Assembly: GCA_963422645.2 (NCBI GenBank)
Contig: CAXXVO010000014.1
Coordinates: 32,001-96,000 of the forward strand
DNA length: 64,000 nucleotides
Reading direction: 5' to 3'
Origin: Alphaproteobacteria bacterium
GTDB taxonomy: Bacteria > Pseudomonadota > Alphaproteobacteria > UBA828
Shown here: positions 7,366-54,983 of the stretch, piece by piece
Position numbering within the stretch: the first letter of the stretch is position 1
Layout: each line of letters begins with the position of its first letter
Notes under the pieces: model-generated
Seen by the model: the letters and a program-made list of their open reading frames with translations, nothing else
Told to the model about the DNA's origin: nothing
Databases searched by the model: none
Translations under genes and position numbers: made by a program

Positions 7366-8282
7366 ATGGGGACGATGATCGGACTTAAGGGCCTCACCTG
7401 GGACCACCGCCGGGCCATCGATCCGATGATCGCGGCGGCGAAGGCCTTCGCCGAGCAGCGACCTGACGTGGACATCGCCTGGGACGTGCAGCCGCTTTCG
7501 GGCTTCGAGTTCCGGCCGATCGATGACATCGTCCGGGACTACGACCTGCTCGTCTTCGATCATCCTCATGTCGGTCATGCCGCTGAGGCGGGCCTGTTGC
7601 GTCCTCTCGATCACCTGTTGCCGCGCGACACGTTCATCGGCCCGTCGCTTGCGACCTATCGCTGGCAGGAGGCGCTGTGGGCGGTGCCGATCGATGCCGC
7701 CTGCCAGACCGCGTGCTACCGGCCCGATCTGCTGCCCGAGGGACCGCCCGCAACCTGGTCGGAGATGATGGCGATGGCAGGCAGACGCCGGCTCGCCTGC
7801 GGCCTCAAGGGCGTTCACGCCTTCATGTGTTTTCTCACCCTGGCCGCCAATCTGGGCGATCCCTCCAAGCAGGAGAAGGCGGGACCGCTGGTCAGGTGCG
7901 AGACGGCAGCGACGGTGCTCGCCATGCTGCGAGAGCTCGCCGCCGCCTGCCCGCCGGAGGCGCTCGACTGGAACTCCATCGCGCTGCAGGATGCCATGCG
8001 CGCGCGCGACGACCTCGCCTATTGCCCCTTGGTTTATGGCTTCGCGACCTATGCCGAAGCCGACCGCGTGCCGCAGCTGGCCTATGCCGATATCCCGGAT
8101 GCAGGCGGCCTGGGTCCGGTCGGCTCGACCATTGGCGGCGCGGGCCTCGGCGTCTCAGCCGAGACGCGCGAGGCGGATGCCGCCGAAGCCTTTGCCGCCT
8201 TCATGGCCGAGGGTGCAATCCAATGCGGCATCGTCGCGCGCTGTCACGGACAGCCCGCCCACCGTGACGCCTGGGACGACCC
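7366..8282 (+). pseudogene. Solute-binding-protein-like gene, 5' part, interrupted by the Mu-like element
   Basis: LKGLTWDH...DLLVFDHPHVG...PIDAACQ; the frame continues in register at 13329 after the insertion. Confidence 0.88.
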
Positions 8283-43165: not shown

Positions 43166-44263
<1,098 letters not shown>

Positions 44264-44363
44264 GCGCGCCGCTCGTCCTGCACTGCCGACGAGACCTCTC
44301 CCTTGAGCCTGGACTGGGCTTCCCGCAGGATGGCGCGGCCCTGCCGGGGCGGGGAGTAGGGGA

Positions 44364-45374
44364 ATGAAGGAACTTTCCTGGGGCGTGCTCGGCGCCTCGT
44401 TCTTCGCCATCGAGCACATGATTCCGGCGCTGCAGCAGACCGCCGGCCTCCGCGTCCACGGGATCGCGAGCCGCGAGCTCGCCAAGGCGGAGGCGGTGGC
44501 CGAGCAGTTCGGCCTGGCTCAGGCCTATGGCGATTACGAGGCCATGTTGGCTGATCCCGCCATCGACGTGGTCTTCAACCCGCTGCCCAACCACCTCCAC
44601 GTGCCCTGGACGGCGAAGGCGGCGCGCGCCGGCAAGCACGTGCTCTGCGAGAAGCCCATCGCGCTCGACGCGGACGAGGCGGCGCAGCTCATTGCCGTCC
44701 GCGACGAGACCGGCGTACAGATTCAGGAGGCCTACGTCGTCATCCATCACCCGCAGTGGAAGCGGGTGCGGGAGCTGGTACGCGCGGGCCGCATCGGCCG
44801 CCTGCGGGCGATCCAGGGCTGGTTCAGCTATTGGCTGGATGACCCCGGGAACATCCGCAACAAGCGGGAGATGGGCGGCGGCGGGCTGTTCGACGTCGGC
44901 GTCTATCCGCTGCTCACCGGGCGCTACGTCTTCGAGGCCGACCCGATTCGCGCCTTCGCCGCGATCGAGCGGCATCCCGAATGGGACGTGGACGTGCTGA
45001 GCCACGCGGTGCTGCAGTTCCCCTCCGGCATCTTGACCTTCACCTGCGGTACGCTGCTCGCCGTGCACCAGCACATGGCGATCCAGGGCACCGAGGGGCG
45101 GATCGAGCTGCCCGACCCCTTCGCCCAGTCGCCGACCCGCGAGGCCCGAATCTCGATCCTCGGCCCACGCGAAATCTGGGAGCCGCTCAACGAGGAGGTC
45201 GAGACCCTGGAGCGGGTCAACCAGTACGTGCGGCAGGCCGAGGCGTTCTGCGCGGCGGTGCGGGGCGAGGCGCCGCTGGTGTTTCCGCTTGAGGAGTCGG
45301 TCAGGATGATGCGGGCGCTGGATGCGCTCGCGCGCTCGGGCGAGAGCGGCCGGTGGGAGGAGGTCGGCGCCTGA
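44364..45374 (+). CDS. Gfo/Idh/MocA family oxidoreductase
   Basis: AGKHVLCEKP; GGGLFDVGVY. Confidence 0.93.
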   Translation: MKELSWGVLGASFFAIEHMIPALQQTAGLRVHGIASRELAKAEAVAEQFGLAQAYGDYEAMLADPAIDVVFNPLPNHLHVPWTAKAARAGKHVLCEKPIALDADEAAQLIAVRDETGVQIQEAYVVIHHPQWKRVRELVRAGRIGRLRAIQGWFSYWLDDPGNIRNKREMGGGGLFDVGVYPLLTGRYVFEADPIRAFAAIERHPEWDVDVLSHAVLQFPSGILTFTCGTLLAVHQHMAIQGTEGRIELPDPFAQSPTREARISILGPREIWEPLNEEVETLERVNQYVRQAEAFCAAVRGEAPLVFPLEESVRMMRALDALARSGESGRWEEVGA

Positions 45375-50632: not shown

Positions 50633-51700
50633 ATGAGCGACGAGACGACGCGCCTGATCGAGCAGACCGCCGACGACCTGTTTGCGGCGGAGAGCGCGGG
50701 CGCTCGCGCGGCGCTCGCGGAAGGCTCCTGGCCGGAACAGCTCTGGCAGACCTTCGCCGAGACCGGGCTCGCACAGGCGGCGTTGCCCGAGGAGGCCGAA
50801 GGCGCCGGGCTCGCGGCCGGGCTCGCGGTGCTGCGCGCGGCAGGGCGCCATGCCGCGCCGATCCCGGCTGCCGAGACAATGGTGGGGGCTCTACTCTGTC
50901 ATGCGGCGGGAATCGAGGCGCCGGACGGCCCGTTGACCCTCCACGCGCTGCCGGATGGAGCGGGTGCCGGCGCCGCCGCTGCCCTCCCGCGAGTCCCGTG
51001 GGCGCGCTTCGTCTCCGCCGTCGTGTTCGTCGCTCCAGGCGAGGGGCTGGCCTCGTGCAAGCCGGTCGATATCAGCGAGGGCGCCAACCTGGCCGGTGAG
51101 CCGCGCGACGACGTCACGCTTGCCGGCCCGCCGGACCGCTTCGCCGCCTTGCCGCCGGAGGTGGACGGCTTCGCGTTGATGGCTGTCGCGCGCGCTGCTC
51201 AGCTGCGGGGAGCGATGGAACGCGTGCTCGCCATGAGCGTAGGCTACGCGCACGACCGTGTGCAGTTTGGCCGGCCGTTGGCGCGCTTCCAGGCGATTCA
51301 GCATTACTTGGCCGAAATCGCCGGCGAGGCGGCCGCCACCGGGGCCGCGGTGGATGCGGCTGCGGAGGCGGGCACCCCCTTCGCCTTCGCCGCCGCCAAG
51401 GCGCGGGCGAGCCAGGCGGCAGGCACGGTCGCCCGCCTCGCGCATCAGGTGCACGGCGCCATCGGCTACACCGCGGAGCACGACCTGCATATCTGGACCA
51501 AGCGGCTCTGGGCCTGGCGCGACGAGTACGGCAACGAGGCCCACTGGTGGCAGGTGCTCGGCGCCGAGACCGCGCGGGGTGGTGGCGCTGCGCTCTGGCC
51601 GACGATGGTCGCTGCCTCCGGCAGCGCGGTAGCAGAAGCCTCCGGCAACGCGGCAGCAGAAAAAGGAGGTAACTACCCAGGTACCCCAATCCTGAGTTGA
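50633..51700 (+). CDS. Acyl-CoA dehydrogenase family protein (second subunit); last codons supplied by the IS
   Basis: RVQFGRPL..FQAIQH, HQVHGAIG; the C-terminal GNYPGTPILS is read from the IS left end. Confidence 0.9.
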   Translation: MSDETTRLIEQTADDLFAAESAGARAALAEGSWPEQLWQTFAETGLAQAALPEEAEGAGLAAGLAVLRAAGRHAAPIPAAETMVGALLCHAAGIEAPDGPLTLHALPDGAGAGAAAALPRVPWARFVSAVVFVAPGEGLASCKPVDISEGANLAGEPRDDVTLAGPPDRFAALPPEVDGFALMAVARAAQLRGAMERVLAMSVGYAHDRVQFGRPLARFQAIQHYLAEIAGEAAATGAAVDAAAEAGTPFAFAAAKARASQAAGTVARLAHQVHGAIGYTAEHDLHIWTKRLWAWRDEYGNEAHWWQVLGAETARGGGAALWPTMVAASGSAVAEASGNAAAEKGGNYPGTPILS

Positions 51701-51753
51701 GGACGGTGATTATGGCGGCGGCCGCGGCCTGGTTCTGCCACCGCGATTGGTTC

Positions 51754-51782
51754 TTGACCTCATAGAGTTGCGGGACTATGGA
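51754..51782 (+). promoter_or_regulatory. Putative sigma70 promoter for the MTase-transposase pair
   Basis: TTGACC-17 nt-TATGGA inside the IS, upstream of ATG 51811. Confidence 0.35.
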
Positions 51783-51810
51783 CTGCTCTCTCGCGTGACG
51801 GGAGCGGTCC

Positions 51811-52476
51811 ATGGGGTATTTCGGCTCGAAGGCGACAGCAGGTCTGTGCCAAGCGCTGATTGCGCTGATGCCGCCGCACTCCGTCTACATCGAAAGCCAC
51901 CTTGGGGGCGGGGCGCTGATGAAGCGCAAGCCGCCGGCCGTGCGTTCGATCGGCATCGACCGCGATGCGCAGGCGCTCGAGGCCTTCGTCTGCGACTACC
52001 CGGTCGATCTGGTTCACGGCTGTGCCCATGACTTCCTGGCCTCGTTCCCGTTCCTGGGCCCGGAGCTGGTTTACAGCGATCCGCCCTATCTGCACGCGAC
52101 CCGCCGCTCGGCGCAGCGCTACCGCTTCGAGTACGAGGAGGCCGGCCACGTCGCGCTTCTCGCGCTGCTCAAGGCTCTGCCCTGCCAGGTCATGATCTCG
52201 GGCCATCCGTCGGCGCTCTATGACGAGGTGCTGGCGGGATGGCGCCGGCTGGCGCTGCAGGTCACGACCCAGGGTCTGGTGCGAACCGAGGTCGTCTGGT
52301 TCAACTACGCCCCCGACCGGATGCATTGGGCCAGCCACGCAGGCCGGAACTTCACCGACCGCCAGCGCATCAAGCGCAAGGCAGCCAACTGGGGCCGGCG
52401 CTACCAGGCCTTGCCGCCGGGCGAACGCCTCGCCGTGCTCGCCGCCATGATGGCCGTCGAGGCCGAAGACACGTGA
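51811..52476 (+). CDS. DNA adenine methyltransferase (Dam/D12-like, compact)
   Basis: YFGSK (motif X), YIESHLGGG (motif I), IGIDRD, VYSDPPY (motif IV), MISG, RTEVVWFNY. Confidence 0.9.
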   Translation: MGYFGSKATAGLCQALIALMPPHSVYIESHLGGGALMKRKPPAVRSIGIDRDAQALEAFVCDYPVDLVHGCAHDFLASFPFLGPELVYSDPPYLHATRRSAQRYRFEYEEAGHVALLALLKALPCQVMISGHPSALYDEVLAGWRRLALQVTTQGLVRTEVVWFNYAPDRMHWASHAGRNFTDRQRIKRKAANWGRRYQALPPGERLAVLAAMMAVEAEDT

Positions 52477-54011
52477 CGGTGTCGCACTGGCACGAAGACC
52501 TCGCCGCCCGTAACGAGGCCTTCTGCTGCCTGAAGGAGCTTCTCGAGCCATCATCCCTCGCAACCACTGTCGTCGTTGCCGTCCGGGAATGGGGGCAGGG
52601 GCTGCTGCGATCAGCCACCGCGCTCGCCCGGGAAAATGCCGCACTCGAGCAGGAGAACGCGGCCCTGCGCGAGCGCATCGCCGAACTCGAGCGCAGCGCG
52701 GCCCTCAACAGCACCACAAGCAGCAAGCCCCCCGCCAGCGACGGGCTCAAGAAGAAAAGCGGAGCCCAGAGGCGCACCCAAAGCCAGCGCGGAAAGTCCG
52801 GCGGGCCCAGTGGCGGCCAGCCCGGCCACAAGGGAACCACCCTCGCGCGGAGCGACAGCCCGGACCGTGTCGTCGATCACCACCCCTCCACCTGTTCCGG
52901 CTGTGGCGTCGAGCTCTCGGACGCCGACCGGCAAGGCGCGCCCGCCTGTCGGCAGGTCTTCGACGTACCCGAGCCGCAGCCTCTCGAGGTCACCGAACAC
53001 CGCGCCCATCGCTGCCTCTGCGGCGCATGCGGCACGCTGACACGAGCCGCCTTCCCGCCGGGCGTCACCGCCCCGGTCCAGTACGGCCCTCGCATCACCG
53101 CTTGGGTGAGTTACCTGCTGTACGCCCAGTTCGTGCCCGAGAAGCGTCTGGCCGAACTCATGAGCGACATCTTCGCGGTGTCCATCTCCACTGCCACGAT
53201 CGCCGCCATGGGCCGGCGCACAGCGCAGCGCTTCGAGGGCTTCCTCGACCATGTCGCCGATCTGATCCGCACGCAGGCGCCGGTCAAGCACCTCGACGAG
53301 ACCGGCCTGCGTATCGCCGCCCGTACCCGCTGGCTCCATGTGCTGTGCACCCCGTTGCTCACCGTCCTGCGCATCGGCGAGGGACGCGGCGATGTCGAAA
53401 AGAACCTGAAAGGCATCCTCGTCCACGACGACTTCGCCCCCTACTTCACCATCAAGGGCGTCCGCCACGGCGCCTGCAACGCACATCACCTGCGCGAACT
53501 CCAGGCCCTGATCGACATCGAGAAGGAGGAATGGGCGGCGAGCATGCACCGCCTGCTTCAGCGCGCGCGCAGGGCCGCCCGCTTCGCCCGTGAGAAAGAC
53601 CGTCAAGTCCCCGCCTCCCTGGTGGCCCGCATCTCAAGGGCATGGGACCGTATCCTCGAAGAAGCCATCGCCTTCCATGAGGCCCAACCGCCGCTCCAGA
53701 TCGCAAAGCGAGGGCGAAAGAAACGCCGCATCGGCCACAACCTCGCGCGCCGCCTTCAAAAGCATAAGGAGGGCTGCCTGCGCTTCCTCACCGACCTGCG
53801 CACGCCGTTCACGAATAACGAGGCGGAGCGTGACATCCGTATGAACAAAGTGCATGAGAAGATCTCAGGCGGCTTCCGCTCCCTGCAAGGCGCCTGCAAC
53901 TTCGCCGGAATGCGCAGCGTCATCGTCACCGCTCGAAAGCAAGGCTGGAACATCCTGCAAATCCTGGCGCACCCGGAACCGATGCAGCTGATCCCTATAC
54001 TGCGCTCCTGA
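52473..54011 (+). CDS. IS66-family DDE transposase (single-ORF type)
   Basis: Coiled coil, NSTTSSKPPASD, GGQPGHKG, CxxC zinc fingers, DETG, CNAHHLREL, TNNEAERDIR; its GTG overlaps the MTase TGA. Confidence 0.95.
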   Translation: MTVSHWHEDLAARNEAFCCLKELLEPSSLATTVVVAVREWGQGLLRSATALARENAALEQENAALRERIAELERSAALNSTTSSKPPASDGLKKKSGAQRRTQSQRGKSGGPSGGQPGHKGTTLARSDSPDRVVDHHPSTCSGCGVELSDADRQGAPACRQVFDVPEPQPLEVTEHRAHRCLCGACGTLTRAAFPPGVTAPVQYGPRITAWVSYLLYAQFVPEKRLAELMSDIFAVSISTATIAAMGRRTAQRFEGFLDHVADLIRTQAPVKHLDETGLRIAARTRWLHVLCTPLLTVLRIGEGRGDVEKNLKGILVHDDFAPYFTIKGVRHGACNAHHLRELQALIDIEKEEWAASMHRLLQRARRAARFAREKDRQVPASLVARISRAWDRILEEAIAFHEAQPPLQIAKRGRKKRRIGHNLARRLQKHKEGCLRFLTDLRTPFTNNEAERDIRMNKVHEKISGGFRSLQGACNFAGMRSVIVTARKQGWNILQILAHPEPMQLIPILRS

Positions 54012-54191
54012 ACTTCTCCGGCTCATCCTGAGTATCGCTGTCCTCTCATCTTGTTCGCGACGCGGCGTTCATCATCCTCTCGCGCTCAAGAGAGTAGGCA
54101 CCCCCGCGGCGTGGGGGCGTTGACGCAAAAGGAACTGGCTTGTTCCATAAGAGAGAGGGGGTACCTGGGCAGTTACAAAAGGAGACCGCCC

Positions 54192-54983
54192 GTGAGCGAC
54201 GAGATCCGCCTGGAGGTCGCGGAGCGTGTCGCGACGATCACGCTCAACCGGCCGCACAGGCGCAACGCCTTCACCCGCTCCATGATCGATGCCTGGGCCG
54301 CGGCGCTTGCGGACTGTCGCGACCGCGCGGATGTGCACGTGGTGGTGGTGACCGGGGCCGGCAAGGCCTTTTGCAGCGGCGGCGACATCAAGGAGCTGAT
54401 GGGGGAGGGGCTGGAGCAGGCGCCGGCCGAGCAGCGCGCGACGATCGGCGAGCACGTGCATCGCATCCCGCTCACCCTCGCCGACATGGACAAGCCGGTG
54501 ATCGCGGCGATCAATGGTGCCGCCATCGGCGCCGGCCTCGACCTCGCGCTCGCGATGGACCTGCGCTTCGCTGCGGCCTCGGCCAAGTTTGCCGAGACCT
54601 ACGTCAAGGTCGGGCTCGCACCGGGCGCCGGCGGTGCGCACTGGCTGCCGCGGCTGGTGGGCCAGGCCAAGGCGCTGGAGCTGCTGTGGACGGGCGTGGC
54701 CATCGACGCGGTGGAAGCCGAGCGCATCGGTCTCGTCAACCGGGCCTGCGCAGACGACGAGCTGATGCCGCAAACCATGGAGCTCGCGCGCCGCCTGGCG
54801 GACGGACCGACTTTGGCCATCCGCGCCATCAAGCGGCTGGTGCGCGACGGCATCGGCGGCGATCTGCGCGCCGGGTTGGACAGGGCCTCTGCCACCTACG
54901 GCGTGCTCGGCGCTACCGAGGATCACCGCGAGGCGGTGAGGGCCTTCATCGAGAAGCGCACGCCGCGCTTCCAGGGGCGGTAG
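54192..54983 (+). CDS. Enoyl-CoA hydratase/isomerase
   Basis: LNRP..RNA, FCSGGDI, NGAAIGAG, AFIEKR.P.F.GR. Confidence 0.94.
   Translation: MSDEIRLEVAERVATITLNRPHRRNAFTRSMIDAWAAALADCRDRADVHVVVVTGAGKAFCSGGDIKELMGEGLEQAPAEQRATIGEHVHRIPLTLADMDKPVIAAINGAAIGAGLDLALAMDLRFAAASAKFAETYVKVGLAPGAGGAHWLPRLVGQAKALELLWTGVAIDAVEAERIGLVNRACADDELMPQTMELARRLADGPTLAIRAIKRLVRDGIGGDLRAGLDRASATYGVLGATEDHREAVRAFIEKRTPRFQGR

Follow-up and report, generated by a model that had tools for sequence, protein, structure and literature searches.

We analysed a stretch of 64,000 nucleotides, here called the window, of an alphaproteobacterial genome (UBA828 in GTDB; assembly GCA_963422645.2, contig CAXXVO010000014.1, positions 32,001 to 96,000). 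Positions 51669-54176 of the window are a 2508-bp insertion sequence (IS) of the IS66 family, in which two coupled genes lie between 19-bp inverted repeats. The second gene encodes the transposase, and the first a 221-residue protein predicted to have the fold of DNA adenine methyltransferase (Dam). A first-pass annotation of the sequence took the element for an IS that brings its own DNA adenine methyltransferase and is possibly self-methylating. We hold, with rather better than even confidence, that the first gene and its promoter are a portable autorepressor cassette that governs transposase expression and was acquired by an IS66 element of the type with a single open reading frame (ORF). 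This reading builds on the observed anatomy and copy number of the element, on the conservation of the cassette and its exchange between transposase families, and on its homology to Upf31, a protein of IncP-1beta plasmids.

We hypothesize that the acquired cassette comprises a promoter, a CATAG-N10-CTATG operator lying over the -10 element, and the gene that encodes a compact Upf31-family protein with a Dam fold. The transposase gene would have no expression signals of its own, being transcribed from the cassette promoter and translated by coupling at the GTGA junction. The Dam-fold protein would be made first and would bind the operator, probably as a dimer formed via its basic C-terminal domain, thereby shutting the operon for itself and for the transposase. 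Such a repressor would act in trans on all copies, so that transposase output would drop as copy number rises, while a copy entering a naive cell would give a burst of expression before the repressor accumulates. We infer operator binding, repression and dimerisation from the tested homologue Upf31 and from the common promoter layout.

Judged by full-length homology, which includes the C-terminal domain, the 221-residue protein belongs to the Upf31 family. It is 45% identical to Upf31.0 of the IncP-1 plasmid pB3 over 222 positions (proteins of 221 and 224 residues; E = 8e-66), and the identity takes in the HLGGG and DPPY motifs and the basic RxRIKRK...W patch of the C-terminal domain; the gene region of pBP136 gave 46.7% identity by tblastn. 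Against plasmids, tblastn returned 196 records, all below 60% identity and 134 of them conjugative, which include IncP-1 upf31.0 and the pBP136 gene. In the portions of Elg et al. that concern this protein (bioRxiv 10.1101/2024.02.05.579024), Upf31 of pBP136 is modelled as a Dam homologue, and in methylation-free E. coli it gave neither a Dam-type digestion pattern nor a kinetic signal in SMRT (single-molecule real-time) sequencing. A full-length R751/pBP136 hybrid Upf31 repressed the 68-bp upf31 promoter about 50-fold, from 4.76 to 0.09 XylE units. The likely operator consists of inverted CAGCATCG repeats, and the C-terminal dimerisation domain (residues 173-225) is needed for repression. Upf31 is also described as altering plasmid and host transcription, its main phenotype being attributed to a predicted interaction with KorB, and the preprint makes no mention of transposons. 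Active methylation by the upstream gene, as the first-pass annotation supposed it, is at odds with the only tested homologue, which is negative in SMRT sequencing and acts as an autorepressor.

The promoter predicted for the window element has a -35 element TTGACC (51754-51759), followed by the half-site CATAG (51761-51765), a 10-nt spacer and the half-site CTATG (51776-51780), the last overlapping a predicted -10 element TATGGA (51777-51782). The same layout stands upstream of every IS-linked relative with enough upstream sequence (39 distinct segments and the window) and of three of the five plasmid homologues examined. When 43 segments from IS66, IS701-type, ISAs1-like and plasmid contexts are aligned without gaps, the TTGAC, TAG and CTA columns are 90-100% conserved. 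The half-sites are complementary in 92.1% of 215 cells, against 16-56% in slid controls, and in three of the five half-site pairs both members have changed (GTAG/CTAC in three IS, ATCG/CGAT in IncP-1). Four of 500 shuffles reached the score of this covariation, whose support is modest but consistent. In pB3 the promoter contains TTGACAGCATCG-N10-CGATGCTGG, in agreement with the published operator. A simple sigma-70 scan did not call the window promoter, its rule requiring a T at the last -10 position. Between the window element and IS701-type carriers, blastn homology covers only element positions 86-811, from 57 bp before the ATG to the stop codon, and the unit exchanged is therefore promoter, operator and gene. 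A host regulon was considered and rejected: about 79 of 87 genomic matches to the operator pattern lie in these IS promoters themselves, that is, one operator per element. On two plasmids an ATAG-N10-CTAT repeat occurs twice in tandem before the gene (L091 3916-3990, Xanthomonas; L094 2400-2483, Photobacterium), which is reminiscent of the clusters of conserved inverted repeats described for IncP-1beta plasmids.

Scanning one genome per species yielded 362 relatives of the protein, and the best 80 loci were kept. Many of the source records are metagenome bins, and the short contigs L011, L042, L044 and L045 have unreliable phylum labels. In 77 of the 80 loci a transposase gene or remnant lies directly downstream on the same strand, which carries the pairing noticed in the window well beyond one copy. 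The downstream gene is an IS66 transposase of a window-like clade A in 28 loci and of clade B in 40 (27-34% identical to clade A, NF033517-positive, a few of them remnants). Seven loci have an IS701-family transposase (NF049999 at 307 bits in L040, weaker in L090). Two gammaproteobacterial records encode an unnamed protein of 426-429 residues (L055:5669-6946 and L081:5660-6946; 74% identical to each other), whose DDE_Tnp_1_assoc and DDE_Tnp_1 matches are near or below threshold. This points to a poorly modelled transposase lineage, with a domain architecture that we take to be typical of ISAs1. Of the three loci left, L046 and L060 are copies of a solo cassette, and L073 is a contig end.

The junction between the two genes is tight throughout. 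GTGA is found in 22 of the 28 clade A loci (L011-L021, L023-L033), and ATGA, TTGA or GTGA overlaps occur in the IS701-type L079 and L090 and the ISAs1-like L055 and L081; elsewhere there are gaps of a few codons. Clade B elements have GTAACTACTC(A/G)CCCCC ends and 8-bp duplications, while those of IS701 type differ in their ends and, in all five resolved cases, are flanked by 5-bp CTNAG duplications. Units repeated within genomes contain both genes, several copies standing on complete chromosomes and long contigs: the extra gene sits inside the mobile unit. Some further arrangements were tried and discarded. Fusion by stop-codon read-through in IS66 clade B was rejected because the frames vary (in frame in 11 of 17 loci, frames 1 or 2 in the others) and all 17 have a clear M(A/S)SVNKQSL start. 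Natural fusion was considered for 29 longer proteins. About 20 of them join the domain to one of IS66 or ISAs1 type; almost every one of these 20 is a singleton (one has two members), and we read them as sequencing or frameshift errors. IS1380, represented by ISSp1, is not a fifth carrier, since ISSp1 is a separate 1.65-kb unit inserted beside a Sphingobium plasmid backbone homologue. The IS1634 in L060 lies 285 nt downstream, outside the unit common with L046, and was treated as unrelated.

A quick maximum-likelihood tree was built from 58 proteins. Those linked to an IS form one clade (SH-aLRT, the Shimodaira-Hasegawa-like approximate likelihood ratio test, 99) apart from seven of eight outgroup proteins, the long-branch outgroup P0144 falling inside. 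Within it, a clade of 19 (SH-aLRT 96) joins 12 IS66-A, five IS701 and two IS66-B cassettes, all from alphaproteobacterial records. According to this tree, the cassette has been exchanged between transposase families, and strict co-divergence of the two genes, one of the checks run on the pairing, does not hold. The ratio of nonsynonymous to synonymous substitution rates (dN/dS), calculated against four relatives, is 0.12-0.21 for the extra gene and 0.24-0.25 for the transposase, so the extra gene is under purifying selection. Together with the 77 of 80 loci, these values bear out the view of the first-pass annotation that the methylase-like gene, whose translation is coupled to that of the transposase, belongs to the element as an integral and conserved component.

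The most economical reading, a transposase gene placed behind an imported promoter that is repressed by the cassette's own product, explains the fixed gene order, the tight junction and the conserved operator. It also explains the exchange among transposases with differing ends and chemistry, and the presence of the cassette on conjugative plasmids. A different account, which we regard as rather doubtful, treats the gene as the passenger of a transporter IS. It would benefit the host or the carrier plasmid, for example by interference of the ParB/KorB type, and would have no role in transposition, the transposase merely using its promoter. IS with passenger methyltransferases are indeed a recognised category, exemplified by IS220 of the IS1380 family in the passages of PMC11891212 devoted to it; the effects of Upf31 on plasmid and host transcription would suit such cargo, as would the loci L046 and L060, which carry the cassette without an adjoining transposase, and the greater abundance of a cassette-less sister IS in the host genome. 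In four transposase lineages, however, the gene always lies upstream of the transposase gene on the same strand, the two overlapping by 4 nt or standing a few codons apart. Independent recruitment in one arrangement is hard to explain for neutral cargo, and this junction would place transposase expression under cassette control whatever other roles the protein has.

The 221-residue protein is, as far as its alignments indicate, a compact Dam-fold protein that lacks the DNA-recognition insert of Dam. It has no Pfam match at E <= 0.01 and scores 22.1 bits (E 1e-4) against TIGR00571 (Dam), whose cut-off is 114.85. It matches the methyltransferase families phrog_56 (phage; 2e-17) and PADLOC MTase_II (5.6e-22), and among solved structures sequence search gave only a marginal DpnM match in the DPPY region. 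A few relatives carry a precomputed PF02086 match. Residues 2-68 align with positions 23-92 of a Dam-like protein of the host, and residues 85-150 with positions 175-245 of TIGR00571. The interval between motifs III and IV is about 17 residues, compared with about 105 positions in Dam models, so that about 90 are missing. In the structures of Dam enzymes (alpha class), this stretch forms the DNA-recognition insert. Among 20 diverse members, G32, G34, D90, P91 and P92 do not vary, and conservation of Y93 reaches at least 90%; the basic C-terminal stretch is also invariant or nearly so. Separately from the IS-borne protein, the host genome has two copies of a gene for a 277-residue Dam-like protein with a full-size recognition insert (L096 1477-2310 = G000:C8:99633-100385; L097), which scores 95 bits, also under the TIGR00571 cut-off.

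These features bear on the possibility, in our view unlikely but worth keeping in sight, that the protein is an active N6-adenine methyltransferase. It could act on the half-sites of its own promoter, as in the Dam switch of IS10, or on many sites in the genome. In this way it could time transposase expression to replication or entry, or alter the host methylome and its sensitivity to restriction. The conservation of motif I and DPPY, kept in Upf31, and the matches to methyltransferase families fit this possibility. So do the occurrence of relatives on conjugative plasmids and the adenine that the right half-site puts at position -11 of the -10 element. Moreover, in the SMRT experiment that was negative for Upf31 an expression vector carried the gene, and the relevant portions of the preprint do not state whether an operator was present in the DNA analysed. 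On the other hand, that only tested homologue shows neither a methylation kinetic signature nor Dam activity, the recognition insert is absent, and the profile scores fall far below the Dam cut-off. In addition, neither GGTACC, a palindrome present in both repeats of the window element, nor the IS ends themselves are common to the elements that carry the same protein clade. The first-pass annotation proposed a self-methylating IS that regulates its ends or its promoter; regulation of its own promoter is the part that stands, while regulation of the ends is not supported, one protein clade serving elements with differing ends.

The main alternative to autorepression by binding is a restricted form of the same activity. 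In this form, which we also regard as unlikely, the Upf31-like protein would be an operator-restricted adenine methyltransferase that methylates the -11 adenine of its own promoter as a heritable epigenetic off-switch. A genome-wide SMRT motif search could miss such methylation. If this were true, an unmethylated element would fire once after transfer or replication and then silence all copies in the cell, and the cassette would be a self-contained, plug-in epigenetic module captured by several unrelated IS families.

In the host genome (5.9 Mb, 23 contigs, about 67% G+C), blastn with the element found 105 pieces at at least 90% identity, including 36 full-length copies at at least 99.7%, which answers the question of further copies raised by the first-pass annotation. 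A perfect 8-bp duplication flanks 22 of the 36, and the remainder seem to have undergone rearrangement between copies. With about 38% G+C (66 of 176 bases by hand count), the duplicated target sites are A+T-rich. The 221-residue ORF is intact in all 36 copies and the transposase in 34. Because of these full copies, perfect duplications and intact ORFs, the element is a real, recently active insertion sequence. Its distribution among relatives is patchy (4 of 40 other genomes, versus 72 matches in the host genome), and it was found in public sequencing runs of 13 studies. It is very improbable that the adjacency is accidental or decaying, the methylase-like ORF being a pseudogene remnant or an artefact of repeat assembly. 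The many metagenome bins, the short contigs and the error-like singleton fusions could have suggested as much; the intact ORFs, the dN/dS values, the several copies on complete chromosomes and long contigs and the occurrence in runs of 13 studies already contradict it.

Two related elements share the host genome with it. A sister IS of 1888 bp has GTAACTGCCCAGGT ends, nearly the same as those of the window element, 8-bp duplications and a single transposase gene with no methylase-like gene; 68 full copies are present (for example at G000 C8:42319-43671, C18:247826-249178 and C6:299873-301225). Its transposase is 59.7% identical to that of the window element over residues 51-501. A second cassette-bearing IS has 24 full-length gene matches, its protein being 85-88% and its transposase about 76% identical. 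The three elements together reach about 130 copies (36 + 68 + 24) in 5.9 Mb. In repeated cases a copy of the window element adjoins or breaks into the left end of the sister IS, whose first 19 bp are missing, with the whole element in their place (C16:41032-43539 with 43752-45104; C16:124526-127033 with 127246-128599; C15:151698-154205 with 154342-155695), which suggests end-targeted insertion or recombination between near-identical terminal repeats. Several copies are split at one point by 2.5-4.7 kb of other DNA, with element positions 2071-2076 on both sides, a 6-bp overlap (C5:164953-167028 and 169608-169987; C5:530237-532312 and 536989-537426; C18:2912-4987 and 7500-7937); either another element inserted there repeatedly or a composite variant has spread.

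Several points weigh against the autorepressor reading. Repression is carried over from a homologue of 45% identity that works in a different genetic setting and whose main phenotype is attributed to a predicted interaction with KorB. Across the IS clade, motif I and DPPY show little or no variation, which would be unexpected if catalysis were dispensable. The sister IS is more abundant than the cassette-bearing element (68 versus 36 copies), which means that proliferation does not require the cassette, whose benefit is unproven. As regards the predicted operator, the centres of its half-sites are separated by 16 bp, an unusual distance for a simple dimeric operator; conservation of the right half-site may partly reflect mere -10 function; and the modest covariation has few events behind it.

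The recipient of the cassette belongs to the single-ORF, ISBst12-like branch of IS66. Its transposase scores 289.7 bits against NF033517 (IS66; cut-off 180), 141.6 bits against PF03050 and 40.3 bits against DUF6444, while zf-IS66 gives 23.8 bits, under its cut-off of 27.3. A DDE transposase, repeats starting with GTAA, an 8-bp duplication and the lack of tnpA and tnpB are the features of this group, and all are present. TnpA and TnpB of the classical three-gene operon (tnpA-tnpB-tnpC) were not found between the element ends. The nearest plasmid-borne transposases are lone genes annotated "IS66 family transposase" with DUF6444, in Bacillus, Deinococcus, Geobacillus and cyanobacteria. In the passages of a Deinococcus paper that deal with it (PMC12898284), the ISBst12 group is the single-ORF group of IS66, and its member ISDge4 has GTAACTGCTCAGCA ends and an 8-bp repeat. 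The first-pass annotation correctly noted that tnpA and tnpB are absent; its suggestion that the methyltransferase stands in their place falls, the sister IS having one gene and nothing methyltransferase-like. Since the single-ORF branch lacks tnpA and tnpB anyway, the extra gene is an addition and not a replacement.

The anatomy of the window element is given in the table below, and the repeats, target duplication, enclosed gene pair and GTGA overlap are all in the sequence as first annotated.

Table. Features of the IS66-family element and its flanks (window positions 51661-54184)
Feature	Position	Strand	Remark
Target-site duplication, left copy, AAAAGGAG	51661..51668	.	Identical 8-mer directly outside both ends
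Terminal inverted repeat, left, GTAACTACCCAGGTACCCC	51669..51687	+	19 nt, 18/19 (95%) complementary to right repeat
Predicted promoter with embedded operator	51754..51782	+	Gapless alignment of 43 upstream segments
Possible hairpin in the 5' untranslated region (5'-UTR) over the Shine-Dalgarno GGGAG (51800-51804)	51783..51807	+	Weak
Gene for Upf31-like, predicted Dam-fold protein, 221 aa, HLGGGA and DPPY, basic C-terminal domain	51811..52476	+	
GTGA overlap, transposase GTG start over upstream TGA stop (translational coupling)	52473..52476	+	
IS66-family transposase gene, GTG start, 512 aa: DUF6444, zf-IS66, DDE_Tnp_IS66	52473..54011	+	
Terminal inverted repeat, right; reverse complement GTAACTGCCCAGGTACCCC	54158..54176	-	
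Target-site duplication, right copy, AAAAGGAG	54177..54184	.	Pairs with 51661-51668

The GTAACT... terminus of the left repeat is common to related IS66 elements and ISDge4. An ORF and family search found no third family-matched gene and no restriction enzyme between the repeats, and the only PADLOC matches are to MTase_II models, in line with the first-pass annotation. GGTACC occurs exactly twice in the element, once per repeat, as that annotation had remarked. This amounts to a single event, because the ends are inverted copies and a palindrome in one recurs in the other; neither the sister IS nor the ends of more distant elements with the extra gene contain GGTACC, which speaks against a conserved methylation target. 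The putative 5'-UTR hairpin (-12.2 kcal/mol, z-score -0.64) is indistinguishable from shuffles; a stem recurs in some relatives (z -2.0 and -1.3) but is lacking in L054, two of four sequences being no better than shuffles. The element has no GANTC site, against a genome average of 1.83 per kb (about 4.6 expected), and 13 GATC sites, slightly under average.

Immediately before the insertion site, at 51614-51661, there is a 24-nt tandem duplication, GCCTCCGGCA(G/A)CGCGG(T/C)AGCAGAA, in two copies that are 92% alike; it lies at the 3' end of the upstream acyl-CoA-dehydrogenase-like ORF. The insertion point (51661-51668, 54177-54195) is the Shine-Dalgarno region of a downstream crotonase-like gene with its GTG at 54193. 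Duplication of AAAAGGAG restores the ribosome-binding site before that gene, so the insertion may be nearly neutral.

An IS is commonly described as consisting of a transposase and at most family-specific helpers. Here one regulatory cassette has apparently been recruited repeatedly, and its presence in unrelated transposase families and on conjugative plasmids points to a transferable solution for restraining transposase expression. Relatives of the protein are numerous (3706 in one search; 5660 clusters at 50% identity in another), and our reading would provide a testable function for thousands of database proteins labelled "DNA adenine methylase", a label that may be wrong. It would also broaden the only experimental work on Upf31, which concerns one plasmid group, to mobile elements of several phyla, offer a simple system for how a methyltransferase fold turns into a sequence-specific repressor, and may help to explain IS blooms such as that of the host genome. 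Our literature searches turned up no IS66 or IS701 element described as having a methylase-like gene. IS with regulatory accessory genes are known as a general kind, and we regard the Upf31-like cassette with IS66 or IS701 as a new variant of that kind.

Trans-acting repressors encoded upstream of the transposase are known from IS1 (InsA) and from the IS3 family (OrfA); they are helix-turn-helix proteins, family-specific and often fused to the transposase by frameshifting. The arrangement proposed here is similar in that the product of a small upstream gene would limit transposase synthesis near the promoter. It differs in the fold, which is that of a methyltransferase, and in being common to unrelated families. 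With the ISBst12 group, represented by ISDge4, the window element has in common the IS66 DDE transposase in a single transposase ORF, the GTAACT ends and the 8-bp duplication. The described members carry the transposase only, whereas the window element is about 600 bp longer, with the Upf31-like cassette upstream. As for Upf31 of the IncP-1beta plasmids pBP136, pB3 and R751, the proteins agree in length, in HLGGG and DPPY, in the basic C-terminal domain and in 45% of their residues, and the promoters in a -35 element followed by an inverted repeat that spans the -10; the published autorepression is that of Upf31. The Upf31 gene, in contrast, belongs to the plasmid backbone and has no transposase gene attached, its half-sites read CAGCATCG instead of CATAG, and the main phenotype of the protein is assigned to predicted contact with KorB, which the IS does not encode; the IS-linked proteins group in a clade apart (SH-aLRT 99). 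IS220 of the IS1380 family, as described in PMC11891212, resembles the window element in having an extra methyltransferase-type gene inside its ends. Finally, in IS10 and IS50 the action of host Dam methylation at GATC sites of the transposase promoter and ends has been demonstrated, as related in the sections of PMC9296519 that cover these elements. There the enzyme is encoded by the host, whereas the protein of the window element comes from the element itself, has no Dam recognition insert and is of unproven methylation activity. Common to both are a Dam-fold protein and a site over the -10 of the transposase promoter, here predicted, and in both, expression could conceivably be confined to DNA that has just been replicated or has just arrived.

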